A stretch of 64,000 bases of DNA from Eubacteriales bacterium (GCA_045633625.1 JAZQYP010000034.1:4530-68529), one strand, 5' to 3'. Numbered from the stretch's first letter, positions 851 through 50,647 are shown. Notes: generated by a model not told the origin, from the letters alone. Translations and numbers: made by a program.

Positions 851-900
851 GTAGGGTCGATTCACGAATCGACCGCGGGGCATTCGTGAATGCCCCCTAC
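851..900. repeat. REPIN-like doublet: two inverted 25-bp GTAG-type REP palindromes
   Basis: GTAGGGTCGATTCACGAATCGACCG followed by the reverse complement of GTAGGGGGCATTCACGAATGCCCCG; compensatory stem changes. Confidence 0.75.
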
Positions 901-911
901 AAATCATAAAT

Positions 912-967
912 AAAAAAGTTGGACACATCATAAACGTTTTTTCGTTCGTGATGTGTTCAACTTTTTT
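912..967. repeat. Inverted-repeat site IR-1 (AAAAAAGTTGGACACATCA-N18-TGATGTGTTCAACTTTTTT); may double as a bidirectional terminator
   Basis: Near-perfect 19-bp arms; recurs at 9409 and 10194. Confidence 0.9.
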
Positions 968-973
968 ATATAC

Positions 974-2944
974 TTAATCCTTAACTAACATGTAGTACAT
1001 CGAGCGCGCGGTGTTGCCCAGCTTGAATTTAAGCTTTCCGTCACTCTCCACGGCAGGTATTGCACCAATGTAGTATCCCTCGGCGCTGATAGACCAGATC
1101 TTGAGGTTTTTAACGCTTGTGCTAAGCTCGATCTCGACCTCGATATTCTCAATGGTAATAGGTCCATGACCAACATCAACTACCACCTCGCCGTCAAACT
1201 TTGCTTCGGTGTTCATAGCCTTTCCAACAGTTGTGAGAAGTATATTATCAGAGCTTGATATCGGTTCTTTTGTAAGTGAGCTCATAGCTATGACGGCAAA
1301 CTTTGTATCGCATTTTATCTTAAGCCCGTCAAGCTCTATTTCTCCGTTTTGAGCGAGAAATCCGTATGCACATTTAGTCATAGGAGTATCTATCGTTCCG
1401 AAATTTTTCTCCCAATCTCTATAAAGCTCGCCCGTATCAGAGCTTGCCGATCCATTCTCTGCCTCGGTTGGCAATATTTCAAGGCCGTCGCTTTCATCAA
1501 ACGAGGAAACTATCTTATGTCTGTCAACTTGTGTTTCGAGGGATGCAAGGTCAAACTTCAAGGGATCGGTCACAGGAAGCTTATAAATCATGTCGCTCTC
1601 CCTTACATCACCACGACGCATAATAAGCGCCGCGTGGTAAAACAGTCCAAATCTTGCAGGATCGTTCCACGTCATATATACACCCTGACGGTACGGAACG
1701 CCCATCATCATAGGTGACGAAAGCTCTTCACCGAGCTTATTGACTCTCTCAAGTTTTCTCATATAAGAATAGGTATGTATCGAAAAGCCCGACCAGCCCT
1801 GAAACGCACCTACTGCCGCCGCATAGAGCACCGCATCTGCGCGATAGGCATCGGGCCACTGTGAGCACCATTCGGAAATATACGTTGGGTGGTCGATATC
1901 CGAAATACAAGCCGTCTTATGCAAGAAAGAAGCTCTCTCACGGCAGACCGATATATTCGGCATACTTCTCTCAAATTCCTTCCAACAGCCGAGTGTTGCA
2001 GGTGAGAATAGATATGCGTGGTTATCTATAAAGTCACAAGTAAGCTGTGCTATATGGTGCGCAGGATTTCTATACCAATTAGTACCGGCGATGGGAATCT
2101 TTACACCGATCGAGCGCAAATGCTCACGCATTTCGGCATAGTATCTTGTCTCAAGATCACTCTTAAAATTCACGTAATCTATATCATCATTATCAAAAGG
2201 ATCTATCTCTTCGGGGTTGCGTTCAATTCCCTTCTCACAAAGCCACTTGCGAAAGAGCTCAATAAATTCGCTTCTGTAAGGCTCAATATAGCCGTCAGGA
2301 AATCTCTTTCTGTAATTTGAAAAGAGATCGCTTTCGTTAGCTATCTCACAAAGCACAAAAGCAGGGTCGTCACAGTATTTTAGCGAGGTATAGGGATTAA
2401 AATGCGTCCAAAGCTCGGTGGCATACTCCTTTTGAAGCTCAATAAGCTTATGTGAGAAGCTGCTGAATGGACTCGACCCAAAAAGATGTGCGTTCTCTAC
2501 CCCTTCTTCCTCGTGGAATTTTCTATGCACCAGAAGATCGAGATAGACGTATATTCCTTCATTTTTAAGACAGCTTACAAAATAGTCGAGTCTGTCCATC
2601 GACTCATCGCAAAGGTGTGCATTCGTTATTCTCTTGCCTCTCTCAAAAGCAAAAATATTTGGAACCTGCCCCTCGGAGTCAAGCTGATGAAGCCTTACTA
2701 TATTTATTCCTACTTTTGCAAGTCGATGAGCAAGCTTTCTTGCATAATCGTGCTCGGGAAAGCACGCCATTCCATTCATACACGTACCCCAGAATTTTGC
2801 GATCGTGCCGTCCTCAAAAACAAATCTTCTACCCTCGGCACGTATAAAACCGTGCTTACCCGCAGGCTTTTCGTCCCCAAATACAAACGAGATATCTATT
2901 GGCATATCATCGTGATAAAATGGATAAGGAATGTATGTTGACAT
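974..2944 (-). CDS. Clan GH-A (GH5-like) glycoside hydrolase, cytoplasmic
   Basis: GINIVRLHQ, YVYLDL, acid/base motif EIANE, nucleophile-like ISEW; no signal peptide. Confidence 0.75.
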   Translation of the reverse strand: MSTYIPYPFYHDDMPIDISFVFGDEKPAGKHGFIRAEGRRFVFEDGTIAKFWGTCMNGMACFPEHDYARKLAHRLAKVGINIVRLHQLDSEGQVPNIFAFERGKRITNAHLCDESMDRLDYFVSCLKNEGIYVYLDLLVHRKFHEEEGVENAHLFGSSPFSSFSHKLIELQKEYATELWTHFNPYTSLKYCDDPAFVLCEIANESDLFSNYRKRFPDGYIEPYRSEFIELFRKWLCEKGIERNPEEIDPFDNDDIDYVNFKSDLETRYYAEMREHLRSIGVKIPIAGTNWYRNPAHHIAQLTCDFIDNHAYLFSPATLGCWKEFERSMPNISVCRERASFLHKTACISDIDHPTYISEWCSQWPDAYRADAVLYAAAVGAFQGWSGFSIHTYSYMRKLERVNKLGEELSSPMMMGVPYRQGVYMTWNDPARFGLFYHAALIMRRGDVRESDMIYKLPVTDPLKFDLASLETQVDRHKIVSSFDESDGLEILPTEAENGSASSDTGELYRDWEKNFGTIDTPMTKCAYGFLAQNGEIELDGLKIKCDTKFAVIAMSSLTKEPISSSDNILLTTVGKAMNTEAKFDGEVVVDVGHGPITIENIEVEIELSTSVKNLKIWSISAEGYYIGAIPAVESDGKLKFKLGNTARSMYYMLVKD

Positions 2945-2956
2945 ATTTTTTCTCCT

Positions 2957-4186
2957 TTATTTTGTTAGTGCAAATTCCATTTGTGCAAGTATTCTCATAG
3001 GATCATCGGCAAACAATTCCTCGGCAAGCAAGGACGCTTCAACGGGCTTTCCGTCAAATGTAGGCGGATACACGTCACCAAGAGCTAATGCCTTATCTAT
3101 CTTTTGTCCGAGGATCTTTTCTGCCAATTCATTTGTTGTTATTGCTCCGTCGGGATAGTCAAATCGACAGCCTACGTCCATCAAATTCGGTGTAGTCATA
3201 TCGGCTTTAGGCACACCTAAATGACGGCAGAAAAAGTCAGTAAGCACAAGAACATCTTCTTCCTCCCAAGAGTGTTTGGTGGCGGTGATCGATGACTCGA
3301 AATTATAGCCAGCCCCCATTTTCTCATAAACGGCACGCACCTTTCGAACAGTTTTACGAAAGAGGTCAGCAGGAAAAAGGTCGTCGTATCTTCCGTTACA
3401 AAGCATAAGCGGCTTTGGAGCAAATGCAGAATATATTTCAGGCATATCCGCAAGATGTGCAGAACCGCGAAGAAGATTACAAGCACAATGCTTTTTCTCC
3501 TTTGCGTGAACGTAGGAAAACTCAGACGGATAGCCGCAAGAAGCAACTGCCGAGAGTCGCTTATTTGTTGCTGTCAAAAAGAGCGTCAGCGTTCCGCCAC
3601 CCGAATTGCCGCAGGCTCCTATACGTGAGCTGTCAATAAAAGGCTGCTCTGCGAGCCATTCTATCCAGGCATTAGTCTCCCTGACTATCATACCTTGGAG
3701 GGTAATACCTCCAACAAGTGGAGAGATGGCATCAAGATGCCCGAACTCCTTGCGTGAGCCCTGACCGAGGTTGTCGCTCATAAGTACGGCAAAGCCCTGT
3801 GACGCAAAGCTGAAAGCCATTTTTTGATAAGCCTCATCAAGTCGCCCGTCGGTGCTGTGTCCGTTGCATATAATTATTGCGGGAAACTTTTTTTCGCTTG
3901 TATTTGGAAAAATAAGATTTGCCTCTCCGTAAGTGTTTTTAAAGGAGCCAAACTGCATAAAGCGAACACAATATCCGTTATGCTCCTCATCTTTTGAGGC
4001 AATAATTTTTATATTTGGCATCGGTATCTTGTCAAGACAGAGCATCTGTTGCGCTTCTTTTTTGATATCGTTGCGAACATCCGCTAATGCGGCATCGCGA
4101 AAGCGCTTATCAAACCGCGCCTTAGCAAATCGCCTTTCATACGAATCGAACACCCGTAAGGTATATTCAAATTTATCTGTATTCAT
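2957..4186 (-). CDS. Alpha/beta hydrolase (acetyl xylan esterase / dienelactone hydrolase-like)
   Basis: Nucleophile elbow GNSGGG, PAIIICNGH, downstream Asp (DDLFP) and His (KHSW). Confidence 0.75.
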   Translation of the reverse strand: MNTDKFEYTLRVFDSYERRFAKARFDKRFRDAALADVRNDIKKEAQQMLCLDKIPMPNIKIIASKDEEHNGYCVRFMQFGSFKNTYGEANLIFPNTSEKKFPAIIICNGHSTDGRLDEAYQKMAFSFASQGFAVLMSDNLGQGSRKEFGHLDAISPLVGGITLQGMIVRETNAWIEWLAEQPFIDSSRIGACGNSGGGTLTLFLTATNKRLSAVASCGYPSEFSYVHAKEKKHCACNLLRGSAHLADMPEIYSAFAPKPLMLCNGRYDDLFPADLFRKTVRKVRAVYEKMGAGYNFESSITATKHSWEEEDVLVLTDFFCRHLGVPKADMTTPNLMDVGCRFDYPDGAITTNELAEKILGQKIDKALALGDVYPPTFDGKPVEASLLAEELFADDPMRILAQMEFALTK

Positions 4187-4206
4187 AGCACTACCTCGTC
4201 ATTATA

Positions 4207-5256
4207 TCACATTTCCTCGGAATTTACAAACACCTTTTCCCTTACCGTCTCGCAGTATCCGCATTTTTCACAATCCTTTTTGCAAGCGGTGGTACGCTCA
4301 AACCAATCGGAAGGAAAACGGTCGTTGTCGATAACGTAAGGCGCAAAGGTAGGTCCGTGACCCGGTTCAAAGAGATCGGCGAGATTACCGTTGTAGCTTC
4401 TGCGCGCATAGGCATCGATCACCATAGCGGGAAGCGCGTGCATACGTGTTGCAAGCTTTATGCCGTCAACAAGACCATCGTAGTTATGTATATCCTCGGG
4501 TCTTATCCATGTGTTTTCTAAAAACGACGCCCAATTTTCGGGATTTTTGAGATAGCTTCTGCACCCCGATGCTCCTGCCCAAGAAAGATTTTCCTTTGTC
4601 ATAATTGACGATTCGTGCGCGACCGCATTGTCGTGGAAGGTCTGCATCGAGCAAGAACGCATACAACCGCTGTTTGCAAGAAGAGTAATTCCTTTTCCGT
4701 TACCACGCAGATATTCTGACACCCTGCCAAGTGCGTCAAGGTCTCGGTTTATGTCACGGAATATACAAAACGAATCAAAAATATGCTCAATATATTGAAT
4801 TCCTTTTATAGTCGATATACGCATATTGACCGAGGCTCTGATGTCGATATTTTTATCGTATCTGCGTACTATCTCGGCAGTTACAGGAGATGCGGTAGTT
4901 ACTATCTCCGGAGAGATATCCTTGCGGTAAAGATAATCGAGCACTGATACGACCTCGCGCTCGTGAGCAAGACTCAAAGCATCGTCTCCGTTACAGAGCG
5001 CATTAAAAAGAAGGTCTAATTTTACACCCATTCGCTTTATTTGTACAAGCTCCTCGGTAAGCATTTCGAGGGATTCAAAATCGGTATAACCGCGCACTGT
5101 CCCAAGAGGACTTCTGCCACCCGCAATACCCGGAAATGAGAAATATACCTCGCCTATCGCCTCGCGGTAAGTCTCGACGATTTTTGGAAATGGCATCTGC
5201 CCCTCACCCGTAAAGCTATGGCCTACGAGCAAGGGTGTTTTATTATTAGTCTGCAT
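4207..5256 (-). CDS. Peptidase U32-family-like Fe-S protein
   Basis: IRASVN, RDINRDL, LANSGCMRSC, WIRPED, IKLATR motifs and C-terminal CxxxCxxCxxC; start moved to the ATG at 5256 (GGAG RBS). Confidence 0.75.
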   Translation of the reverse strand: MQTNNKTPLLVGHSFTGEGQMPFPKIVETYREAIGEVYFSFPGIAGGRSPLGTVRGYTDFESLEMLTEELVQIKRMGVKLDLLFNALCNGDDALSLAHEREVVSVLDYLYRKDISPEIVTTASPVTAEIVRRYDKNIDIRASVNMRISTIKGIQYIEHIFDSFCIFRDINRDLDALGRVSEYLRGNGKGITLLANSGCMRSCSMQTFHDNAVAHESSIMTKENLSWAGASGCRSYLKNPENWASFLENTWIRPEDIHNYDGLVDGIKLATRMHALPAMVIDAYARRSYNGNLADLFEPGHGPTFAPYVIDNDRFPSDWFERTTACKKDCEKCGYCETVREKVFVNSEEM

Positions 5257-6268
5257 CTGATTCTGCTCCACCGTCTGCAATGTCAATAATATCGTCAAGG
5301 TACTTTTCATTTCCATCCTCGCTCCAATCTACCTGCCAAGGACGGCGGCGACGGAATGGCTCCTTGAACTGGTTTTTCAGAACCCCACGCGCTTCAAGGC
5401 TCATCATACAAGCGCGTGTGCAGCCGCGTGCTCCGCAGACAGCTTGACCGCTTTGATAAAGTATCTTCGGACGCTTAAAGAAAGGTGTGTGTGCGCCCCT
5501 TTTTATGTTGTCTCTGCCGGGCACGTCTATGTAGTCTCCCTTGCCAAAGTCGGTGCGCTCTCCGCCACTAAAGTAATCGTTACACTTTACTGTGTCGATC
5601 TCACCCCACTCGACCTCGTGTCCGGCAAGAGTTACCTTAACAGTCTTTGTTTCGCTAATGCAGTGACCGGGACATGCACGAACGCAAGCCATGCACTTGT
5701 TGCAAAGCTTGGGACCATCATAGATGGGATCAGGCTCAAGCTCCATTTCGGTAAGCACGACACCTATACGAACGCGGGGACCGAACTCGGGACAAAGGAA
5801 CATCTTGCTGTATCCTATCTCACCAAGTCCCGCGAGATATGCCGCGATTCGAAGATGTATCATAATGTCGGGTGCCGGTAATCCCTTTCTGACAGGAACA
5901 CTGTATTTTTTCTTGAGCTTTCCCTCATTATCTATCGCGCGCCAATCGCTCTGATGTCCTATCGGAATAGCCTCATATCCCTCGTCCTCAATATGCTTGC
6001 AAAGATTTATTACCGTCATCGGTATGTAATTATATGTAAGCCCTCCATATCCCATTGCGGAATAGTTACTGAAGAACGTTCCCTCTTCAATACCGCGCAA
6101 CGATCCCCGCATAACGCGGAAGCCCATAACTATCATACTCTTTGCCTCGGGCATAATGTATCGAGGATCCATTTGCTTAGGTGCCCCCTCAAATCGATCC
6201 ATCGAAGCTATACCTACAATATCGGCGCCAAGACTTTTTGCTAACTGCTTAATTTCTTCTTTTGTCAT
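5246..6268 (-). CDS. QueG/reductive dehalogenase-like (cobalamin, 4Fe-4S) reductase
   Basis: GADIVGIA N-terminus, AAYLAGLGEIG, PEFGPRVR, CxxCxxCxxxCP and a later CGxxGCxxxC. Confidence 0.75.
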   Translation of the reverse strand: MTKEEIKQLAKSLGADIVGIASMDRFEGAPKQMDPRYIMPEAKSMIVMGFRVMRGSLRGIEEGTFFSNYSAMGYGGLTYNYIPMTVINLCKHIEDEGYEAIPIGHQSDWRAIDNEGKLKKKYSVPVRKGLPAPDIMIHLRIAAYLAGLGEIGYSKMFLCPEFGPRVRIGVVLTEMELEPDPIYDGPKLCNKCMACVRACPGHCISETKTVKVTLAGHEVEWGEIDTVKCNDYFSGGERTDFGKGDYIDVPGRDNIKRGAHTPFFKRPKILYQSGQAVCGARGCTRACMMSLEARGVLKNQFKEPFRRRRPWQVDWSEDGNEKYLDDIIDIADGGAESDAD

Positions 6269-6288
6269 AATAAAAGTTTCCTTTCTGT

Positions 6289-7485
6289 CTATTTTGTAAA
6301 TTTCTTTGACAATTCCATAGATGCTTCTATTATCATATCAGCGGCATCGGGATAGTATGCTGTGCTCCCTTCCGCTCCGTAGCCACCTCTCGGTATAGCC
6401 TCACGGGTAGGAATATAGCTTATCCAGTCATTTGTATTACAAGTAGGTATAGTCATCTTGAAAGCGGAACCTGTTTTTATTTTTCTCCCTATCTCTCCGA
6501 ATGCCTCTCCGGGGAGACCCATAAACGCAACTTCACCAAGAGCCAAGCAACTGACTCTGGCGCTTCTCGCGCTTGCCCTGTCGCTTACCGACGGAATTAA
6601 TATTTCTTTTATCTCAAAGGAGATCTTTCCTGTCATTACAGGCTCGGCATAGGTATAAGCACTAAGGACTGCACCTGCTATGACGCGGCCTATATGCTGT
6701 ATATGCGTATAACCTCTCTTTGCGTTATAAATATCAATCGTACCCGTATCTCCCTCGGCTCCGTTAAAAAATGCTACCTTTGCACCCTTTCCATTTGCCT
6801 CATCGGAGAGGGCTTGCTCGAGTGTCAGTCTTACAAAATGAATGTAATCGGCTGAAAACTTTGTTATCGAACCAAGCGTGCAGGGATGTGTGGCAAAATT
6901 CACAATAACAACATCGTGTCCGCCGTTGCGTACGAACTTTATAAATTGAACGCTCTCGTCAGGCTCACTCTCACGGCAAATGACATCGGAATCGTCCTTT
7001 GAGGGATTCATCTTACAGGTGCCGTCCTTCATTATAAACCGTCGGACAAAGGAAACGTTTTTAGCCTCACCCCTACCGACGTACGCTTCAGCCTCTTTGA
7101 GATCGGCTATTGCAATACCCGCAGAATCTGCAACTCTCCCAAAAAAGAAATCGACGTATCTCCAATCCTTCTCGAACATAACCCCGCTTATTTCGGGGGT
7201 ATAATGCGAATGCGTACAATGGATAAACACTGCGTCACCATCCACGCCGTATCGTTCTGATATCATATTTCTTATTTTATCGTGATCGACGCGGCGCATT
7301 TCAAGTATGTCGAGCGTGATCGCAACAGCAATCCTGTCCCCGTCGGAAAATGCGACGGCAGTCGCATAAAGCCCGTCAAGAATGCCGTCCGCTATCCTCG
7401 GTTTGCCAAGACCGTTTATCACTGTCCCGAGCGGCGCCGTTATCTCAAGTCGTGAATATCCTACTTTCATATAGCTCAAACTCAA
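6289..7485 (-). CDS. Neutral/alkaline ceramidase-like metallo-amidohydrolase
   Basis: HCTHSH, NFATHP, SADY, FFNGAEGD, LPGEAF, YIPT motifs; start may be the ATG at 7470. Confidence 0.7.
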   Translation of the reverse strand: MSLSYMKVGYSRLEITAPLGTVINGLGKPRIADGILDGLYATAVAFSDGDRIAVAITLDILEMRRVDHDKIRNMISERYGVDGDAVFIHCTHSHYTPEISGVMFEKDWRYVDFFFGRVADSAGIAIADLKEAEAYVGRGEAKNVSFVRRFIMKDGTCKMNPSKDDSDVICRESEPDESVQFIKFVRNGGHDVVIVNFATHPCTLGSITKFSADYIHFVRLTLEQALSDEANGKGAKVAFFNGAEGDTGTIDIYNAKRGYTHIQHIGRVIAGAVLSAYTYAEPVMTGKISFEIKEILIPSVSDRASARSARVSCLALGEVAFMGLPGEAFGEIGRKIKTGSAFKMTIPTCNTNDWISYIPTREAIPRGGYGAEGSTAYYPDAADMIIEASMELSKKFTK

Positions 7486-8465
7486 TCATTCTTTTTGATT
7501 TTTGTAAATGTTGCAAAAGTACTTATAGCTATTATCATCGAGACGAATGCTGCGGAAAGAGATGACCCACATCCCTTGTCGGCAGCCACATTATCACTTG
7601 AAATCTCATTATTAGAAGAGTCAAGTACGGTTTCTCTCGGATCAGTTTCAGCAGGTATCACATCCTCACCCCCCGTCTCCGTATAAGGTTCCTCGGTCTC
7701 GGGTGCCTCACCGAAAGTCATTACGTGAGGAAAACGTCTGCCGTCTGCTCCCTTACCCCAAAGTTTGCCTTCAACCTCTGCGGCATCCGCAGAGGTTGCA
7801 AGTGCTTCATGCTCGCGGGGGAGTATAGTTCCAAACCATATTTCAGGATAGTCATTGGGATAGTTTTCGACATCGCGGTCATCTCTCATCATAAGAAGTA
7901 TAGAAAAAACCGTTATATCCTCAGGCTCAACGCCTATATAATCCGCAAGAGCAGTTCTTCCTATAACAAGCTCGTATACGATGGTATTTCCAATCGTTGA
8001 CGTTTCAAAAGCGTATGCCTCGTCACTTTCGGGAAAGCCTCCAAATACGTATCTTACGTAGACTCCGTCCAGAAAATCCTTTTCGTTGCAGGAAAGATAG
8101 AAGCAAATATATTCGCCGTCAAGGATTTCTCTCTCGGTAACCTCAGCTCCTATGTAGACGTAATCGTCATCATAGCTGAAATAGAGGTTAAAATTTTCAA
8201 CGTCAAGCGTTGCGGGATCAATACAAAAGAATCTGTTGTCCTCTGCGTCATTTGCGGGATTCATATCCTTGACCTCAAGGGTATATTCACCGTCCTCGAC
8301 AACTCCGTCTGCGATAGGCGGGACGGACGTTTTACCTTCGATGACCCAATGCTGCTGACCTGCATCCTCAAGCTCCATATTCGAATATTCTTCCGCAAAA
8401 GCGCAAAGAGACAAAGCAGTCGCCAAAATAGCCGCGACAATTAACGTACAGGTGAATTTTTTCAT
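7482..8465 (-). CDS. Secreted acidic protein (CBM9/DOMON-like) with a C-terminal GCGS-TM-basic anchor
   Basis: Signal peptide (AFA), PxxDGxxxxGEY and YDDDYVYIG motifs, PETE-rich linker, GCGSS plus hydrophobic helix plus KIKK. Confidence 0.65.
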   Translation of the reverse strand: MKKFTCTLIVAAILATALSLCAFAEEYSNMELEDAGQQHWVIEGKTSVPPIADGVVEDGEYTLEVKDMNPANDAEDNRFFCIDPATLDVENFNLYFSYDDDYVYIGAEVTEREILDGEYICFYLSCNEKDFLDGVYVRYVFGGFPESDEAYAFETSTIGNTIVYELVIGRTALADYIGVEPEDITVFSILLMMRDDRDVENYPNDYPEIWFGTILPREHEALATSADAAEVEGKLWGKGADGRRFPHVMTFGEAPETEEPYTETGGEDVIPAETDPRETVLDSSNNEISSDNVAADKGCGSSLSAAFVSMIIAISTFATFTKIKKND

Positions 8466-8627
8466 AAAATTTCTCCGATCTTCAAATTTATGTTTTAATT
8501 ATATACTCCAAACTGTCTGCTGTAAATTAATAAAACAAATATTTTTTTATATTTTTCAATTTTTATTCTTGTATTTATAGCGGTTTATGATATAATTATT
8601 TTCAATAAACGATTTTAGTGAGGATAT

Positions 8628-9395
8628 ATGAAAGAGATAAATTTTACAGTAACGGACGTAGCATTTGCATATGCAAGACACTATGATAAGGGACATATTT
8701 TTGTGGCAAATAAAAGACCGAAGCACGGCCTTACACTTATTACAAGCGGAGAATTTGAGATGACCATAGCCGGCAAGAAGCTCTCTGTCCCTCAAGGAAG
8801 CGTCATCATGCAGAGAAAAAATGACAGCTACAAGCTTACGTCTGTGAGCGACAGCGGAGTTGATTACATTGTAATTTCCTATGACGTAGAGCCCGAAACG
8901 GAAATTTTCTCACTTATTCCTGACAGAATATTTTTTGCCGAGCATATCGGGCGCTATATCCACGCATTTGAGAGTGCTGCGCGTTTGTTTGGATCTTGTG
9001 GAATTTGCAATAAAACCCTTTTACGCACAATAGTTCAGGAAATACTTTGCAATATTATTGATGACATCTATTCGACGCTCCTATACTCTCAAAGAAATCC
9101 CGTGGAGTATGCCAAAAGCTATATTGAACAGTATTTCAACTGCCCCTTAAGTGTTGATAATATCTCATCGGTAGTCGGACTTTCCCCCTCTTATCTGCGA
9201 ACGCTGTTCAAAAAAAGCGAGGGTGAAAGCCCTAATCACTATCTCAATCGCACAAGAATAGAGCACGCCAAAGAAATGCTACTTTCCGAGATGTTCACCA
9301 TTGAAGAGGTAGCGTCTGCCTGCGGTTTTCAAAACGTCTATTATTTCAGCCGCGTTTTTAAAAAATATACAGGAATCCCACCCGGAAAATATTAA
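8628..9395 (+). CDS. AraC-family transcriptional regulator, divergent from the cargo operon
   Basis: C-terminal AraC HTH (IEEVASACGFQNVYYFSRVFKKYTGIPP). Confidence 0.92.
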   Translation: MKEINFTVTDVAFAYARHYDKGHIFVANKRPKHGLTLITSGEFEMTIAGKKLSVPQGSVIMQRKNDSYKLTSVSDSGVDYIVISYDVEPETEIFSLIPDRIFFAEHIGRYIHAFESAARLFGSCGICNKTLLRTIVQEILCNIIDDIYSTLLYSQRNPVEYAKSYIEQYFNCPLSVDNISSVVGLSPSYLRTLFKKSEGESPNHYLNRTRIEHAKEMLLSEMFTIEEVASACGFQNVYYFSRVFKKYTGIPPGKY

Positions 9396-9408
9396 ATCAA
9401 ATCAAATT

Positions 9409-9465
9409 AAAAAAGTTGGACACATCATAAACGTTTTTTCGTTCGTGATGTGTCCAATATTTTTT
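9409..9465. repeat. Inverted-repeat site IR-2
   Basis: Same arms and identical 18-bp spacer as IR-1. Confidence 0.9.
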
Positions 9466-9613
9466 GCTTGAAAAAGTACTATATACCGTCGGTGTATAAG
9501 TATATAGAGGTGATAGGATTTGCCATTGCCAAATATATTTATCCCTAATAGTAACTATTGGATTATCCGCAACATTTCCGCAAACTCTTCGACCACATCA
9601 TTTACGGCGACGT

Positions 9614-9853
9614 CAAAACGCGATATAATGTTTTCAGGAAAATTGAATATGATGTGTTCAGCGATAAGGATTTTGCAATTTAGAGACTAAAAAATGCTTG
9701 ATTTACAAGGCTTTATATGTTATAATAATTTCATCCCCAAAGCTATAAAGCCTCTAATGCGTTGAGATGATGGGACTTATCGGCGCTGGTAACAACCCCA
9801 TGGTTGGTATGACGGTGGCTGTAGCTGTTGCTATCGAAGAGGCAAGCAAGTAA
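9614..9853 (+). repeat. Direct repeat copy 2 (att-like module)
   Basis: Matches 590-830; contains promoter TTGATT-17-TATAAT at 9698-9726. Confidence 0.95.
9761..9853 (+). pseudogene. Second displaced 3' fragment of the GGGtGRT-family gene
   Basis: Same peptide as 738-830, with 7 synonymous third-position differences. Confidence 0.8.
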
Positions 9854-9917
9854 TTTGATCTTTTAGCTCTTCATGGGTTTTTCCCTATTTTTTTAATGTA
9901 ATTAAGGAGGCCTTATC

Positions 9918-10133
9918 ATGTCTTATCAAATGGCAGGACATTCCAAGCTGTGCGCGACTTGCAATTACTGGCTCGGCCCGCGTCAGATCAATTGGTGCGC
10001 AAGTCATGTTGTGCTTGAAGCGCAAAGTATAAAGGGCAAATGCTGGTGTCAGGGCGGTCCTCACATGCGTGCTGATAGACTCAGCAATTTTTGTGCTTGC
10101 TCGCGCTATGAAAAGTGGTCGGTGTTGAAATAA
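9918..10133 (+). CDS. Small cysteine-rich protein (71 aa), possibly metal-binding
   Basis: Strong AAGGAGG RBS; CATCNYW, GKCWC and CAC motifs. Confidence 0.75.
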   Translation: MSYQMAGHSKLCATCNYWLGPRQINWCASHVVLEAQSIKGKCWCQGGPHMRADRLSNFCACSRYEKWSVLK

Positions 10134-10193
10134 GGATGCGTGTTACTTTTCTTTTGAAAAAAAGTAACCAAAAGAAAGCTTTACATACTTAAT

Positions 10194-10248
10194 AAAAAGT
10201 TGGACACATCATTTTGGAGAAATCCGTAGTGATGTGTCCAATATTTTT
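10194..10248. repeat. Inverted-repeat site IR-3
   Basis: GTTGGACACATCA-N18-TGATGTGTCCAA with a different spacer sequence of the same length. Confidence 0.85.
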
Positions 10249-10327: not shown

Positions 10328-10356
10328 TTGACAAAATTGCAAAAAAATTGTAGAAT
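10328..10356 (+). promoter_or_regulatory. sigmaA promoter of the large surface protein
   Basis: TTGACA-17-TAGAAT. Confidence 0.7.
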
Positions 10357-10453: not shown

Positions 10454-13400
10454 ATGGCTACAAGAAAAGTTACAAAGCGCGCCTTGTTTTTGAGCTTTGT
10501 GTCCATGTTTTTGTGTTTCACAATGCTTATTGGAACAACTTATGCATGGTTTACTGACTCTGTAAGCAGCGCAACAAACATTATTACTGCTGGAAACCTC
10601 GACGTTGAGCTTTACCATGCCAACGAGGGTACAAACGATGCCGACGAAAAGGTTACAAGCACAACTACTCTCTTCACCGACGTTGATTCGGCAAAGTGGG
10701 AGCCCGGCGCTATGGCTTGGGAGAAGTTCACCGTTAAGAACGTGGGAACACTTGCTCTCAAGTATGAGTTCGCGCTCAACGTAACGAGCGCAAGCGTTGT
10801 AGACGGCATATCCTTTGCAAAGATGCTTAAGGTTGCCGTTGTTGACGAGAGCTTTGATTATACACGCGAGAACGTAAACAACATTCCCGCTACCGAGTGG
10901 AAGGATCTCGATTCCTTTGAGGTCATCGCTTCCGCACCCGAGGGACTTGAGAATAATGAGTCCAAGACCTTTGGTGTAATCATTTGGTGGCAGCCCTCGG
11001 AGAAAGACAACCTCTTTAATATGAACAATGGCAAGCAGGTCGGCTCTATAGGTGTTGACGTAGGCGTTGTACTTAACGCAAGCCAGTTCACGTTTGAAGA
11101 GGATAGCTTTGGTATAGATTACGATACTACCGCAACCTTCCCGATGGCAAAGATCAACTTTACATCCGAGGAGGACGTAACCGATAAGATCGACCAGACA
11201 AGTGGCGCTCTTACCGAGAACGTTACCGTTGGTGACGATAGAAACGATATTCAGGCAGAGGTTCCTGCAGGCGTTACTATGGCAGAGGGAGCAGATAAGC
11301 TTGAGCTTACTGTAAAGACTATCGAGGAAAGCTCTGCAAATATCGTTATTGACGAGGAGAATCAGTCTACAGTTTCGGTAGACGTACATATCGAGGGCGT
11401 TGCAGAGGACAATACCGTTCCTATGAAGATAGTTATGAAGGGATTTATGAAGCCCGGACTTAACGATAACAACTATGCGCTCTATCACGTTGAGAACGGC
11501 GTTACCAATGCTATGACCTTGGTACCCTATTCGGAGCTTGACGCGCACAACGAGTTTTCGTATAACGCAGTAACCGGTGACGTAACCCTTTGCCTTGCAT
11601 CCTTCTCAGAGGTTGCAGCAGTTGCCGATGAGGTCGTTCACTGGGACGGAAAATCTGCTACTGCATTTGCTACATATGAAAATGGTACTTATGGTACTGG
11701 TTCTGCTGAAAAACCCCACCTCATCGCAAACGCAAGCCAGCTTGCATATTTCCGTGATCTTGTTGATGGTGGAAGAACATTTGAAGGTGAGTACGTCAAG
11801 CTTGCTAATGACATAATTCTTAACCACCATGGTGAGACAAGAAACCAGTTCGATCCTATCGGCTGGGGCTATGCTAATAGCGCCTACAATGCAGGCGGCG
11901 CTGCCGGCAAGGTCTTTATGGGAACCTTCGACGGCGGCGAGTATGACGCAAGTGGCAAGCTCGTTGGCCGTCACGGCATTCACGGTCTCTGGCAGAACGG
12001 CTGGGATCTTGAAGCCAAGACCAAAACCGACTACACCTACACTAACTGTGGCTTCGGTCTCTTCGCATCTGTTAAGGACGCTACAATTAAGAACCTTGAG
12101 ATCAAGCACGCAAACGTTGTTGTTGAGTGCGTTGAGGCAGGTATTGTAGTAGGTCTTGCGCAGGGTAATTGTACCTTTGAGAATCTTTATGTTTACTCGT
12201 CCCACATCGCTAACTACCAGCGTCCCGCGGGCGGTGTTGTCGGTGAGGTCAGCCCTCGATTCGAGAACGGTGTAGCACAGGAGAGCACAGTTACCTTCAA
12301 CAACGTACACGTTGGTTCTTCCTGTACCGTAGGTTCTCTTTGGGGTGATTTTGATACTCCCTGCGGCGGTGTTATCGGCGCATATTGGGATGATGCGGGA
12401 AAGACCACGGTTAATATGAATAGCGTTGACGTGTCCTGCGTTCTTGACGTTTACAGCGACGTTACTTCCGCATATCAGTGGTACGCATACCGCCGTGCGG
12501 GTATGCTTATCGGTAATACCGACCAGCCCCCTGCAGATGGTAAGAATGCCAAGGTTGCTACTGCGAATTTCCTAAACTGTACAAACTGCGTAGTTATCTA
12601 CGATTATTGGGCAGATTATAAGTATTGTCAGTTTACAAACAACAATAACCCCGGCAAAAACTATCCTTGGGTAAGAATTCAGGCAAGCCAGTATAACGGC
12701 GCATATTCTAACCCCAGATACGGTCATCCTAAGGACCTTCACGATCACTTGGTAACCAGCGATAACCATGAGCATCAGGAAGGAGACAAATGCCACGAAT
12801 ACATCCCCTTCAATCAGCTTTACGGCGGCGGTCAGGGTGTTTACGGTCAGACCGGTCATCCCGGTGTTACCATCGGTAAGTACACCATTGTCTATATGGT
12901 TGGTGATGAGATTCAGGACGTACACTACGTTGCAAACAACTCTGTTCCTTATACCGCTCTTCTGCCTCTTGAAGCGGGATATGAGTGGGTTGACATAGAC
13001 AGTAATAAAGTTACCCAGATTCCCGCGGGCAACACCAGTCACATAGTCCTTTACCGTAACACAACTGATAAGAATATGGTGCGTTTCGTTGATAAGGACG
13101 GCTACGTTATCACAGAGCAGGAATTTGCTTACGGTAAGGATGCGAGTTATTACCAGACAAATATAACACCCCCTTCCGTTCCTCCTGTTGAGGGATACTA
13201 CGGTGTATGGCCCGAATGGTGGAAGATGCTTGCGGCTGTAACAAAAGATGGAGAGGATGTTACAGTCCATGCAGTTTATACCGTAATCTATGAGGAAGAT
13301 AACGAGGCAGTTACTCCTGATAAGGAGATCGTAATCTTTGACGAGAACGGCGACACAGGTGACCTCTTCCAGATGATCTCTCAGGGCAAGAGCGTTGTAA

Positions 13401-13981
13401 TGTACAAAGATCTTGCGGGTAATATCGGAAGCGCAAGCATCAAGACCTTTGCTACAGTAGGTGATCCAAATACTAATGGTTGGGTTTCTAACCATGCACG
13501 TCTTGATCTTGATTCCTTCGAATTGGTGTATGATAATGACAGCAATGCCGCTCAGAACTGGACACTCTTTACCATCAAGGAAGGTGCTTCATTGACCGTT
13601 GGAGGCGGTGTGCACGGTGGCGGTAAGCTTTCCTTCGTATTTAATACGCTAAATAAAAACTCTGCACCTCGTCTCTTCAATCTTGAATACGTAGAGGGCA
13701 ACGTGGATAATGGCGGACACGAGATTCACTCCACTCTTATCCTTGAGCGTGGTGTTGTTATCGAAATGAAGTTCCATAAGAACATTTTCAATAAAAATAG
13801 TAATTTCAGCATTTCCGAAGAAAATATTAAAACTTTAATCACCGGTCACTCCCATCCGGACGGTACCGAGGAACAGCATCATCCTGGAATTCAGGTAGAA
13901 ATAAGCGAAGAAGGTGATTACAAAGTTATTCGCCTCATCGTTAATTCCTATACCACCTTCGTTGGTAACACGGCTAACTAA
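10454..13981 (+). CDS. Large surface protein with SipW-class (TasA/camelysin-like) signal peptide and GLUG-like beta-rich region
   Basis: GTTYAWFTDSV...ITAGNLDVEL N-terminus; WDG...GSAEKPHLIANASQLA motif; GGAGG RBS. Confidence 0.8.
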   Translation: MATRKVTKRALFLSFVSMFLCFTMLIGTTYAWFTDSVSSATNIITAGNLDVELYHANEGTNDADEKVTSTTTLFTDVDSAKWEPGAMAWEKFTVKNVGTLALKYEFALNVTSASVVDGISFAKMLKVAVVDESFDYTRENVNNIPATEWKDLDSFEVIASAPEGLENNESKTFGVIIWWQPSEKDNLFNMNNGKQVGSIGVDVGVVLNASQFTFEEDSFGIDYDTTATFPMAKINFTSEEDVTDKIDQTSGALTENVTVGDDRNDIQAEVPAGVTMAEGADKLELTVKTIEESSANIVIDEENQSTVSVDVHIEGVAEDNTVPMKIVMKGFMKPGLNDNNYALYHVENGVTNAMTLVPYSELDAHNEFSYNAVTGDVTLCLASFSEVAAVADEVVHWDGKSATAFATYENGTYGTGSAEKPHLIANASQLAYFRDLVDGGRTFEGEYVKLANDIILNHHGETRNQFDPIGWGYANSAYNAGGAAGKVFMGTFDGGEYDASGKLVGRHGIHGLWQNGWDLEAKTKTDYTYTNCGFGLFASVKDATIKNLEIKHANVVVECVEAGIVVGLAQGNCTFENLYVYSSHIANYQRPAGGVVGEVSPRFENGVAQESTVTFNNVHVGSSCTVGSLWGDFDTPCGGVIGAYWDDAGKTTVNMNSVDVSCVLDVYSDVTSAYQWYAYRRAGMLIGNTDQPPADGKNAKVATANFLNCTNCVVIYDYWADYKYCQFTNNNNPGKNYPWVRIQASQYNGAYSNPRYGHPKDLHDHLVTSDNHEHQEGDKCHEYIPFNQLYGGGQGVYGQTGHPGVTIGKYTIVYMVGDEIQDVHYVANNSVPYTALLPLEAGYEWVDIDSNKVTQIPAGNTSHIVLYRNTTDKNMVRFVDKDGYVITEQEFAYGKDASYYQTNITPPSVPPVEGYYGVWPEWWKMLAAVTKDGEDVTVHAVYTVIYEEDNEAVTPDKEIVIFDENGDTGDLFQMISQGKSVVMYKDLAGNIGSASIKTFATVGDPNTNGWVSNHARLDLDSFELVYDNDSNAAQNWTLFTIKEGASLTVGGGVHGGGKLSFVFNTLNKNSAPRLFNLEYVEGNVDNGGHEIHSTLILERGVVIEMKFHKNIFNKNSNFSISEENIKTLITGHSHPDGTEEQHHPGIQVEISEEGDYKVIRLIVNSYTTFVGNTAN

Positions 13982-50258: not shown

Positions 50259-50647
50259 AAACTCTTAAAAAATATTTGATCACACTGATTATCGGTTTTT
50301 TGACTGTTTTTCTGATAGCCTTATCAAAGGATATTTTTGAACAGACCAGCATCGTTAAGATACTTCATATTTTGTGTGATTGCTTCTTCGTTGTCGGAGT
50401 TGTGACAACGTCTATTGGACTTTTGATATTCTCAAGCAACGAGGGTACGTTTGACATTCTTGTTTACGGTGTCAGCTCATTCGTTGATATGTTCAGAAAA
50501 ACAAGCAAAAAGAAATATGAAACCTTCTACGATTACAGAGATAGCAGAGCGGATAAGAAAATAAGCTTTGGCTTCTTGCTGATCTGTGGTCTTATCATCC
50601 TTGCAATATCCCTTATAATATATCTCTTCTACAGAGTATACAAATAA
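50255..50647 (+). CDS. DUF3899-like small membrane protein
   Basis: Three TM segments, NEGTFD...YG motif, follows oppF. Confidence 0.7.
   Translation: MKTLKKYLITLIIGFLTVFLIALSKDIFEQTSIVKILHILCDCFFVVGVVTTSIGLLIFSSNEGTFDILVYGVSSFVDMFRKTSKKKYETFYDYRDSRADKKISFGFLLICGLIILAISLIIYLFYRVYK

Follow-up and report, generated by a model that had tools for sequence, protein, structure and literature searches.

Accretion of ICESt1/ICESt3-type elements and of CIMEs is said to have been described by Pavlovic et al. in 2004. In ICESt1/ICESt3-type elements and streptococcal IMEs, integrative elements and CIMEs (cis-mobilizable elements) accumulate in tandem at a target gene's 3' end (PMC5704250). The locus analyzed here lies in a 64,000-nt stretch of DNA (the window) from an uncultured gut bacterium, in which islands are stacked behind one metabolic gene. 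The locus resembles those elements (PMC5704250) in several respects: a tyrosine integrase enters a protein-coding gene at its end, a copy of that gene end travels with the element, newcomers join residents that are mostly decayed, and integrase-less units lie between attachment repeats. As in a CIME array, the integrase gene lies next to the intact target gene (30 codons of it on contig C35, full-length in relatives). The locus differs in its target, a GGGtGRT-family gene, and in its hosts, uncultured gut Clostridia, both of them new as far as our searches reach. It differs also in its islands, which where seen intact are 9-14 kb long, of defence type and without conjugation or mobilization genes among their Pfam hits, and in a conserved-arm hairpin and a promoter/half-site module that are fixed in the attachment region.

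What the preliminary description called crossovers are copies of the last ~93 nt of the GGGtGRT-family gene, and for this reason we read the window as a tandem stack of decayed integrative islands. Copy 1 (738-830, + strand), which we take as the attachment core region, and copy 2 (9761-9853, + strand) each comprise the last 30 codons and the stop, with 100% identity to residues 303-332 by tblastn; these direct repeats bound the units, and the full gene is on C35. Ahead of copy 1 is the element-side arm (P arm) of attachment remnant 1 (576-737, + strand), with promoter-like sites at 576-604 and 675-703 that point toward the gene fragment and a lone half-site at 625-635; it is 87% identical to 9610-9853, and the same module stands upstream of gene fragments in other genera. 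The P arm of remnant 2 (9560-9760, + strand) carries promoter-like sites at 9601-9629 and 9698-9726 and a lone half-site at 9650-9660, and its 35-nt promoter block shows few mismatches against relatives. Between the two remnants lies an 8.4-kb cargo without an integrase (974-9395), made up of six ORFs on the - strand (656, 409, 369, 340, 398 and 327 aa, the second esterase-like) and an AraC-family regulator on the + strand (8628-9395); it was not found among 200 genomes of the host family. A 71-aa cysteine-rich ORF with a ribosome-binding site (9918-10133, + strand) follows fragment 2 and matches no Pfam or NCBIfam family, and in contigs of other organisms the gene end is joined to the hairpin without it. 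Two REP-like GC-rich hairpins can also be read at 851-905 (+ strand), between the stop of fragment 1 and the first of the hairpins described below. Several relatives have similar double hairpins ahead of the hairpin, and the empty site of G037 has them too.

Three arm-N18-arm sites had been noted in this region, and direct reading bears them out as three hairpins, IR-1 (912-967), IR-2 (9409-9465) and IR-3 (10194-10248), each built of an A-run, a 13-nt arm, an 18-nt spacer, a 13-nt arm and a T-run. In IR-1 these occupy 912-917 (A6), 918-930, 931-948, 949-961 and 962-967 (T6), between the gene-fragment transcript and the 656-aa ORF that runs toward it and stops at 974. IR-2 (+ strand; arms 9415-9427 and 9446-9458, spacer 9428-9445) begins 14 nt past the AraC stop, has no gene fragment ahead of it and differs by 1 nt from the C35 copy. 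IR-3 (+ strand) has its arms at 10199-10211 and 10230-10242 and its spacer at 10212-10229. The preliminary description was right that IR-1 and IR-2 share a spacer while that of IR-3 is unrelated and equally long, that IR-1 and IR-2 bracket the cargo as direct repeats (60 nt long) and that there are two lone half-sites, both of them exact; its statement that the motif occurs nowhere else in the window stands apart from a single one-mismatch site at 50485. With up to one mismatch allowed, TGATGTGTYCA has 9 matches in the window against 1.71 ± 1.23 in 100 shuffles, none of which reached 9. The spacing, described as fixed, is so within the window, but among 80 related hairpins it runs from 16 nt (1) and 17 (2) to 18 (52) and 19 (25).

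The arms read GTTGGAC at the 5' end and GTCCAAY at the 3' end, and the second arm of IR-1 has a T in place of the C seen in the others, so that a G.U pair results on the + strand. Folding energies of the hairpins on that strand run from -28 to -33 kcal/mol (z -7.2 to -10.2), and in each case none of 200 shuffled sequences folded as well; for IR-1 the values are -32.9 on the + and -29.0 on the - strand. In both of its versions the spacer has its own 4-bp apical stem and is not an open loop. All three hairpins adjoin gene 3' ends (the fragment and convergent ORF, the AraC gene and the 71-aa ORF), and with a stable stem-loop, a T-run and a place at the 3' end of a transcription unit they have the shape of intrinsic terminators. 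A simple terminator scan left them uncalled, the stem being bulged and the "loop" longer than 8 nt, and Rfam covariance models gave no match at gathering scores over the whole window.

Across the genome (2.05 Mb in 77 contigs) there are four hairpins of this type, all at this system: the three in the window and IR-4 on C35, between the full-length target gene (PF14057, E 6.1e-191) and the start of a Xer-like tyrosine integrase gene. C35 ends at an assembly break 30 codons into the latter, the remainder of which is absent from the assembly; the adjacency of C35 and C34 is putative. One stray exact half-site is on contig C51. The motif is not scattered behind ordinary core genes, so the hairpins are not a scattered terminator family, the outcome that would have undone the original suggestion. 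A genome-wide repeat family (REP/BIME, MITE or uptake sequences), which has many dispersed copies, could likewise be ruled out, with hairpins at one system only and 1-3 exact copies per genome in relatives. The paired uptake sequences of Neisseria and Haemophilus also have identical short arms and free loops and form terminators at gene ends, but they number hundreds to thousands per genome, unlike the four hairpins and one stray half-site here.

The exact hairpin occurs in 23 of 201 host-family genomes, with its copies clustered within each genome except in G172 (two contigs). Relatives typically have the target gene, then the hairpin, the integrase 19-43 nt beyond it, the cargo, the P arm with half-site and a gene fragment, and the co-location with island ends and recombinase genes proposed earlier is seen in that the relatives' hairpins sit at integrase attachment regions. 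In a collection-wide scan, a gene end lay within 400 nt upstream of 56 of 80 hairpins and an integrase start 20-43 nt downstream of 22. In a larger set, 33 of 119 hairpins failed this gene-tail screen (≤400 nt upstream), about 8 of them having short, degenerate or variant-tailed gene ends by eye; an A-run was present in 114 and a T-run in 117 of the 119, the shape of a two-way intrinsic terminator. Overall the arms are 12-13 bp and the spacer 16-20 nt, and the spacer varies freely in sequence while its small apical stem persists (at least 4 pairs in 80% of 89 distinct spacers vs 39% of shuffles). Of 33 candidate fragments, 18 have GATGTG upstream, and in 17 of these it is preceded by a TAnAAT box at a distance of 27-28 nt. 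The P-arm half-site is a conserved part of the attachment region's other arm in relatives also, and the motif is present in both arms flanking the core, as a lone site in the P arm and an inverted pair on the integrase side. We count at least 128 loci in the species collection, and in one family 18 of the 97 genera sampled.

Searches led by the integrase do not rely on the hairpin motif. Arm invariance in the sets derived from a pattern is there by design, and only the integrase-based sets test it. All nine loci in other families with 59-86% identical integrases have the gene and such a hairpin, and on metagenome contigs 25 of the 34 integrase starts are accompanied by a hairpin, among them 12 of the 13 that begin a full-length gene; the nine starts lacking one mostly belong to truncated genes. 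Integrase clades do not track host families. Across integrases of this divergence, with differing spacers and flanks, the arms are near-invariant: outer positions change only as compensated pairs (TTAGAC/GTCTAA, which arose in two integrase clades, and ATGCAC/GTGCAT), and the inner 8-mer, TGATGTGT, is unchanged and present in three copies per attachment region. By these comparisons, arm sequence is constrained far beyond the needs of pairing, and TGATGTGT is probably a protein recognition motif, most likely for the integrase, which would use it as an accessory site or operator. The arm motif and the start of the core agree at 9 of 12 positions, only marginally above chance by a rough estimate.

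The full-length integrase of relatives (313 aa, PF00589) has a SAM-like core-binding domain from residue ~15 and a catalytic domain at 121-284. Its best models are XerA, XerC and XerD, every one below cut-off, and its best solved relative is XerA 5hxy (E 7e-19). Because there is no separate arm-binding domain, any binding of the arms by the integrase would have to use the core-binding and catalytic domains. As in lambda attP, copies of the motif flank the core at distances of no more than a few hundred nucleotides, beside the integrase gene; lambda Int, however, binds its arm sites through a separate N-terminal domain, and the earlier label "integrase arm-type" fails in the lambda sense. The recombination site of TnpI, the recombinase of Tn4430, is 116 bp long. 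TnpI is a tyrosine recombinase without an arm-binding domain that uses the same binding motif at the core IR1-IR2 and the accessory DR1-DR2 (PMC2847244), and the present system resembles it in its small two-domain recombinase and in one motif repeated across the recombination region. By analogy with TnpI, we propose that a mechanism of that type could apply to the three copies of TGATGTGT. Here, unlike in TnpI, which resolves cointegrates, the copies are distributed across some 350-400 nt, a terminator hairpin is formed by two of the three, and their binding is putative.

Taking these observations together, we think it probable that the hairpins are the integrase-proximal part of the attachment arm of small islands, which have stacked and decayed, and that they are terminator-shaped with arms that serve also as a protein motif. 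Islands with a Xer-like tyrosine integrase would insert into the last ~93 nt of the GGGtGRT-family gene, each bringing its own copy of the gene end, then the hairpin and, 19-43 nt on, the integrase gene. After insertion, the hairpin would take over from the displaced native terminator of the target gene and would also guard the integrase gene against read-through. At the far end lies the promoter-bearing arm with one more arm motif, and then the displaced gene fragment; the outward promoter would drive the integrase only in the excised circle. Repeated insertion and decay could then have left IR-4 on C35, and IR-1, IR-2, IR-3 and two gene fragments in the window. Accretion of this kind needs extra deletions at IR-2 and at other hairpins without a gene fragment upstream, and several arrays have more hairpins than gene fragments.

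The comparison of occupied and empty sites bears on where the hairpin came from. In G106 and G188, where the site is freshly occupied, a fragment forms the far end and leads into an ordinary terminator or no hairpin at all; the G106 repeat is exact over ~96 nt, with the host's atypical C-terminus included. Fragments of G002 and G172 likewise lack a hairpin there. In G037 the empty site carries an ordinary terminator and no such hairpin. Because fresh sites end in ordinary terminators and the empty site has no hairpin, the hairpin is element-borne and the main crossover falls within the gene end. Were the hairpin instead the ancestral chromosomal terminator of the GGGtGRT gene, merely copied into islands, one could understand why it always stands behind that gene or its fragments, and why gene and hairpin occur without an integrase in G040, G002, G161, G003, G066 and G111. 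We consider this very improbable: a query holding the gene's end matches 129 of the 201 family genomes, yet the exact hairpin is in only 23; of 20 further family target genes without it, none with an integrase, 15 (that of G037, from the same genus, included) have unrelated terminators; and hairpin variants follow neither host genus nor family, G188, of the window's genus, having the TTAGAC variant seen also in other families. It is conceivable, though unlikely, that the hairpin is a plain replacement terminator, acting in two directions and nothing more, its arms alike through the horizontal spread of one young block, the island's left end with hairpin, ribosome-binding site and integrase 5' end. 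The canonical A-run, stem and T-run, the placement at gene 3' ends and the compensated arm changes, which imply selection on pairing, all suit this, as do the integrase-less hairpins of L267 and L271, whose arms have drifted but still pair. Against it, the arms are identical where the adjacent integrases, spacers and flanks are not, and the same 8-mer recurs in the other arm at constant spacing from a promoter; it makes no terminator there, and in G106 and G188 that site is a compact palindrome. The preliminary view of a protein-binding or recombination site rather than a terminator is only partly upheld, with conserved arms and location at integrase sites in its favor, and terminator shape and gene 3'-end position against its second half.

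That the hairpin is itself a recombination site, with the integrase joining two hairpins to capture or lose integrase-less cargo as a cassette, seems doubtful to us. The direct repeats around the 8.4-kb cargo share a spacer, and the C35 copy has the left flank of IR-1 and the right flank of IR-2, as an unoccupied site would. IR-1 and IR-2 resemble the two products of insertion into an IR-4-like hairpin. Hairpins are moreover the fixed points of arrays, the gene fragments to their left and the integrase stubs to their right varying in length, and all have one orientation within an array. As in integron attC sites, there is one site per cargo unit in some arrays, and the folded form combines a conserved proximal stem and unpaired, bulged bases with a variable tip. 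Yet the intact-island sites described above place the crossover in the gene end, the hairpins bounding most arrays have two different spacers, and array units, of 0.8-14 kb, hold several genes on both strands with their own regulators. The only strain-level indel seen in public contigs (6239-8537) ends away from the hairpins and not inside them, the outcome that the preliminary description proposed to look for; the 41-letter joint at a hairpin (9434 to 910), the only one, is ambiguous. An attC site proper, the other earlier suggestion, can be rejected: attC boxes have the consensus RYYYAAC ... GTTRRRY, the inverse of the order here; the integrase is not IntI (TIGR02249, 51.9 bits, cut-off 265; NF011946, 30.8 bits, cut-off 435); and the cargo consists of operons on either strand with promoters and regulators, not single-gene, mostly promoterless cassettes. 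The Xer/dif core has two ~11-bp inverted arms around a 6-8-bp central region, and the hairpin spacer is too long for that type. It also appears improbable that the hairpin is part of an RNA switch, in which the lone half-site in the P-arm transcript pairs with the 5' arm while the 3' arm has yet to be transcribed and acts as an antiterminator; transcription would then reach the integrase only in the excised circle, which brings promoter, core, hairpin and integrase gene together without interruption. The 5' arm does pair with the lone half-site in all four constructs folded to the end of the spacer, with duplex energies of -14.7 to -18.3 kcal/mol (arm with arm gives -17.6 to -19.2); wobble preserves the pairing where the lone site naturally varies, with Y at position 9 and R at position 11; and on contig L217 P arm, core-bearing fragment, hairpin and full integrase gene follow in that order. 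The partners, however, are 290-550 nt apart, the full-length minimum-energy fold always contains the terminator, the palindromic P-arm site of G106 and G188 would fold on itself, and invariant arms leave no covariation between lone site and 5' arm. More speculatively, and with little confidence, we can picture an attachment-state switch, in which the three copies of TGATGTGT sense integration. One copy would lie ~+15 to +25 from the outward promoter and the inverted pair would form the terminator before the integrase, which the promoter would face only in the excised circle; read-through would be set by the leader copy as an RNA antiterminator or by integrase bound to the three copies as an operator. 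To the same Xer-like enzyme, hairpins left in the chromosome might then offer secondary sites at which operons without an integrase, the block between IR-1 and IR-2 for one, are captured or shed.

On the reading we prefer, of an attachment arm left by stacked and decayed islands, a puzzling repeat finds its place in a coherent mobile system, widespread among uncultured Clostridia of animal guts, that builds variable regions behind a conserved and reportedly abundant gene. Its genes include regulators and operons for sugar utilisation, alongside restriction-modification and other genes of defence type. The attachment region is unusually legible, with a promoter, three copies of a motif, a core in coding sequence and a replacement terminator, and makes a good case in which to test how a simple Xer-like integrase obtains site choice, directionality and self-control without an arm-binding domain. 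The hairpin is also a sharp annotation marker of island boundaries and scars in such genomes. If the switch and capture reading were true, gut Clostridia would possess an integron-like cassette platform that works with a recombinase of non-integron type.

Three inverted-repeat sites with fixed spacing are present in the window as the preliminary description had them, at 912-967 (IR-1), 9409-9465 (IR-2) and 10194-10248 (IR-3). Each is built of an A-run, a 13-nt arm GTTGGACACATCA, a spacer, the complementary arm and a T-run, with the complementary arm consisting of TGATGTGTYCAA plus one base (C in IR-1, T in IR-2 and IR-3). The 18-nt spacer is, as claimed, identical in IR-1 and IR-2 and different in IR-3 at equal length, and the exact lone half-sites were found at 625-635 and 9650-9660. 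With up to one mismatch allowed, the 11-mer has nine matches in the window against 1.71 +/- 1.23 in shuffled sequence, and 0 of 100 shuffles reached nine. The plus-strand fold of each hairpin has a predicted energy of -28 to -33 kcal/mol, which 0 of 200 shuffles equaled. Both versions of the spacer contain a 4-bp apical stem; the spacer is not an open loop, and the complete structure is therefore a long bulged hairpin. An Rfam scan of the whole window gave no match, and a simple terminator scan of it did not flag the hairpins.

The window corresponds to C34:4530-68529 of a genome assembly of 2.05 Mb in 77 contigs. This assembly has four matches to the complete hairpin pattern: the three sites in the window and a fourth, IR-4, at C35:172590-172632 on a second contig, where a full-length GGGtGRT-family gene (PF14057, E 6.1e-191) stops about 90 nt ahead of it. 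The start of a tyrosine integrase gene lies about 30 nt beyond IR-4, with only its first 30 codons present before C35 ends; this end overlaps none of the other contig ends, and no contig continues the integrase gene. The two "crossovers" of the preliminary description do exist, at 738-830 and 9761-9853, and can now be identified as copies of the last 30 codons of the GGGtGRT-family gene. No further copy of the att-like region was found anywhere in the genome, and the exact 12-nt half-site has one stray genomic copy, on C51.

Among relatives, 23 of the 201 family genomes have the exact-arm pattern, spread over 18 of the 97 genera sampled, with one to three copies per genome clustered within 1-14 kb (the exception, G172, has three copies over two contigs). 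A species collection held at least 128 loci with the pattern, and all loci among the matches listed belong, by their record titles, to uncultured gut Clostridia. Viral contigs gave no match to the hairpin, and thus no free phage form was found. On 22 loci where both target gene and integrase were mapped, the order recurs: the full gene is separated from the hairpin by 50-110 intergenic nt, a 313-aa integrase starts about 30 nt past the hairpin, and cargo comes next; the far end has a conserved arm with a promoter and lone half-site and then a gene-end fragment, after which another hairpin often stands. Among the matches listed in the collection-wide scan with the arm pattern were 80 distinct hairpins; a gene end lies within 400 nt upstream of 56 (the full gene in 32, a fragment only in 20), an integrase start 20-43 nt downstream of 22, both at 16 and neither at 18. 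A looser screen placed a gene tail ahead of 86 of 119 hairpins, and inspection by eye of the remaining 33 showed several with very short or degenerate tails and IR-2 without any. The densest stack seen, at 421-17540 of L034 (contig C51 of genome G135), has at least seven hairpins in one array. Six fit the search pattern, the arms of one, at 8560-8598, are variant, and five stand behind the final ~15 codons of the gene variant that the host itself carries.

Sets collected with the arm pattern are not independent of the motif, and we therefore repeated the search from the integrase. Order-wide, a homolog at E <= 1e-30 was found in 14 of 301 genomes. Integrases 59-86% identical occurred at nine loci, all in other families, and all nine have the target gene or its end, with a hairpin of the same architecture immediately ahead of the integrase gene. 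On metagenome contigs, the hairpin was present at 25 of the 34 integrase starts with enough upstream sequence, among them 12 of 13 full-length genes. Homologs of 33-44% identity adjoin tRNA genes and have different inverted repeats at the integrase start; at L197-L200 (33-36% identity, beside tRNA genes), a conserved inverted repeat with arms CTTGATT and AATCAAG overlaps the RBS. Inverted repeats at the start of the integrase gene may be a trait of the wider family. The protein itself is a two-domain Xer-like tyrosine recombinase (PF00589, with a SAM-like domain from residue 15), whose matches to the NCBIfam XerA, XerC and XerD models all fall under their cut-offs and whose closest solved structure is XerA (5hxy). 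Against the integron-integrase model it reaches 51.9 bits, where the cut-off is 265.

The far ends of islands bear on where crossover occurs. At the far end of the ~9-kb island of G106, the end of the host gene is repeated exactly over ~96 nt, down to the atypical C-terminus of that host; an ordinary GC-rich terminator comes next, and a conserved-arm hairpin is absent. G188, a member of the window's genus, has the same far-end pattern, and in G037, of the same genus, the empty site consists of the gene, REP-like hairpins and an ordinary terminator. These sites put the primary crossover within the last ~93 nt of the target gene. Of 20 further target genes, taken from family genomes that lack the exact hairpin, 0 had the integrase nearby; they were followed by unrelated terminators (15), a TTAGAC-variant hairpin (3) or the same architecture with compensated arm changes (2). 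By tree, the integrase clades do not follow host families. Taken from sequence comparison, the hairpin arrives with the island, which brings a spare gene end and the hairpin, and a hairpin after a fragment marks a site occupied beforehand. The left ends of the gene fragments fall at codon ~302 and ~316-319, or later, and do not mark one exact crossover point. REP-like double GC-rich hairpins (GTAGGG..TTCACGAA..CCC type) lie between target-gene stop and terminator at both occupied and empty sites, in the window at 851-905 and also ahead of the hairpins in L009, L014, L019, L021 and L207, and may represent a small repeat family in its own right.

The preliminary description took the conserved arms for a protein-binding or recombination site rather than a plain terminator. 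The terminator half of that opposition is supported: an A-run accompanies 114 of 119 hairpins and a T-run 117, all three window hairpins stand at gene 3' ends, with the symmetric IR-1 between convergent units, and the shape is clearly that of a terminator, putative in function. The 119 hairpins hold 89 distinct spacers, of which 80% form an apical stem of at least four pairs against 39% of shuffles. Compensated arm changes (U-A to C-G three times, G-C to A-U four times, A-U to G-C three times) indicate that pairing is selected. The other half also has support, in that pairing alone does not account for the constancy of the inner 8-mer (TGATGTGT and its complement), which is fixed while the integrase diverges to 59% identity and the spacer is free; arms change at outer positions only, as in ATGCAC/GTGCAT of L222 and L223. 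Coupled evolution of arm variant and integrase clade was considered and gets no support from the tree, the TTAGAC/GTCTAA variant having arisen in two separate clades. The 8-mer core occurs once more, in the other arm of the attachment region. There, GATGTG lies upstream of 18 of 33 candidate fragments and in 17 of the 18 starts 27-28 nt after a TAnAAT box, which would place the site at roughly +15 to +25 of a core-facing promoter, as judged from promoter-like sites; at this position G106 and G188 have a compact palindrome built from the 8-mer core. Because the inner 8-mer is fixed and recurs in the other arm, we read the arms as those of a terminator doubling as a putative recognition motif. 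The integrase is the likeliest binder, being the only protein common to all elements; a conserved second arm-binding protein was considered, and the DUF6809 gene after the integrase is present in only a subset of elements. The multiple use of an arm motif proposed here for an Xer-like integrase resembles that of TnpI of Tn4430, a simple tyrosine recombinase for which one motif serves core and accessory site (PMC2847244). The start of the core resembles the arm motif at 9 of 12 positions, a weak hint.

This layout could also regulate the integrase. In the integrated state a terminator would separate its gene from the target gene upstream; once the island is an excised circle, transcription from the other arm's outward promoter would cross the core and hairpin and enter the integrase gene. 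L217 has the order promoter arm, core, hairpin, integrase gene. An RNA switch, with the 5' arm pairing with the lone half-site before the 3' arm is transcribed, is thermodynamically possible, and such pairing formed in all four folded constructs lacking the 3' arm, although the two partners are far apart. At L231 (~1290-1400) and L252 (~1300-1417), the promoter and half-site join the integrase RBS directly, core and hairpin being missing, as if the lone half-site had recombined with the 3' arm.

Why hairpins persist within arrays can be explained in two ways. The hairpins are the fixed points of arrays, with gene fragments to their left that end at codon ~302, ~316-319, ~326 or the stop, and integrase stubs on their right ending anywhere from residue 27 to 187; only the first 23-87 integrase codons follow the hairpins of L066, L078, L091, L103, L105, L106, L109, L110, L121 and the metagenome loci L236-L254. 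Remnants of the integrase 3' part alone were not seen, and erosion is one-sided and anchored at the hairpin. The evidence from intact elements favors the explanation that hairpins are kept by selection as terminators for adjacent cargo while the rest erodes. The less favored explanation is that the hairpin is a secondary recombination site. IR-2 starts 14 nt past the AraC stop without a gene fragment and shares its spacer with IR-1, and IR-4 has its left flank as in IR-1 and its right as in IR-2, a mix that insertion of the 8.4-kb block into an IR-4-like hairpin would produce. Public contigs from bovine and other gut metagenomes gave no clear joint at IR-1/IR-2: an ambiguous joint from 9434 to 910 appears on one contig, over 41 letters inside the palindrome. 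These contigs also include gene-end-to-hairpin joints of other organisms, and their summed depth is much higher over the shared parts. The one strain-level indel observed, on contigs of two bovine-gut runs in which 6239-8537 (two cargo ORFs) is swapped for 106 other letters, does not end at the hairpins. Same-genus synteny did not locate where the array ends on the right, since genes downstream of it map to other contigs in G124, G188 and G037. An SSV-type split integrase, considered because many hairpins have stubs after them, was rejected on the varied stub ends and the intact genes of integrated elements.

The two intact elements annotated are small islands, one with a type I restriction-modification system, a SocA/Panacea-type gene and a resolvase, the other with a WYL protein, SprT-like and Cro-like genes and a resolvase. 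Between the hairpins of other arrays lie AraC regulators with oxidoreductases, a glycyl-radical enzyme with its activase, transporters, a leucine-rich-repeat surface protein, and Fic and PadR genes. The 8.4-kb block of the window encodes an AraC regulator and six minus-strand ORFs and no integrase. A search of 200 family genomes with the window cargo (968-9404) matched only gene-end, promoter-arm and hairpin parts, with no shared cargo with informative borders; beyond these parts, cargo genes had weak partial matches in G081, G039, G190 and G011. Paralogs of the 327-aa and 656-aa cargo ORFs lie adjacent at C60:19829-22569 of the window genome, at 68-76% DNA identity and in an order unlike the window's. 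Just upstream of the window on C34 (L007, 1929-3379, minus strand), a second, unrelated Xer-like integrase of 279 aa, 24% identical to the island integrase, neighbors an XRE-type HTH gene and a DUF6809 gene remnant and adjoins an SPFH/zinc-ribbon gene; it probably belongs to a different element of this stack. Between the second gene fragment and IR-3, an ORF of 71 aa (9918-10133), eight of them cysteines, is preceded by a good RBS and matches no Pfam or NCBIfam family, and other organisms' contigs join gene end to hairpin without it. After IR-3, a 1175-aa ORF (10454-13981) has a camelysin-like (Peptidase_M73) match at its N-terminus and a strong promoter-like site ahead of it at 10328-10356.

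Titles and abstract openings of the GGGtGRT papers among the matches listed have nothing on integration, the arm strings return human primers only, and Acutalibacteraceae with integrase and genomic island has no literature match. Section 2.3 of PMC5704250 describes tandem accretion, including decayed units of cis-mobilizable elements (CIMEs), and in its terms the 8.4-kb block is a decayed, CIME-like unit in such an accretion. We consider the finding real and specific. The kind of system, tyrosine-integrase islands accreting at a gene 3' end, is already known. Judging by literature searches for the gene, the arm sequences and the host family, the target gene is new and the anatomy of its attachment site previously undescribed.
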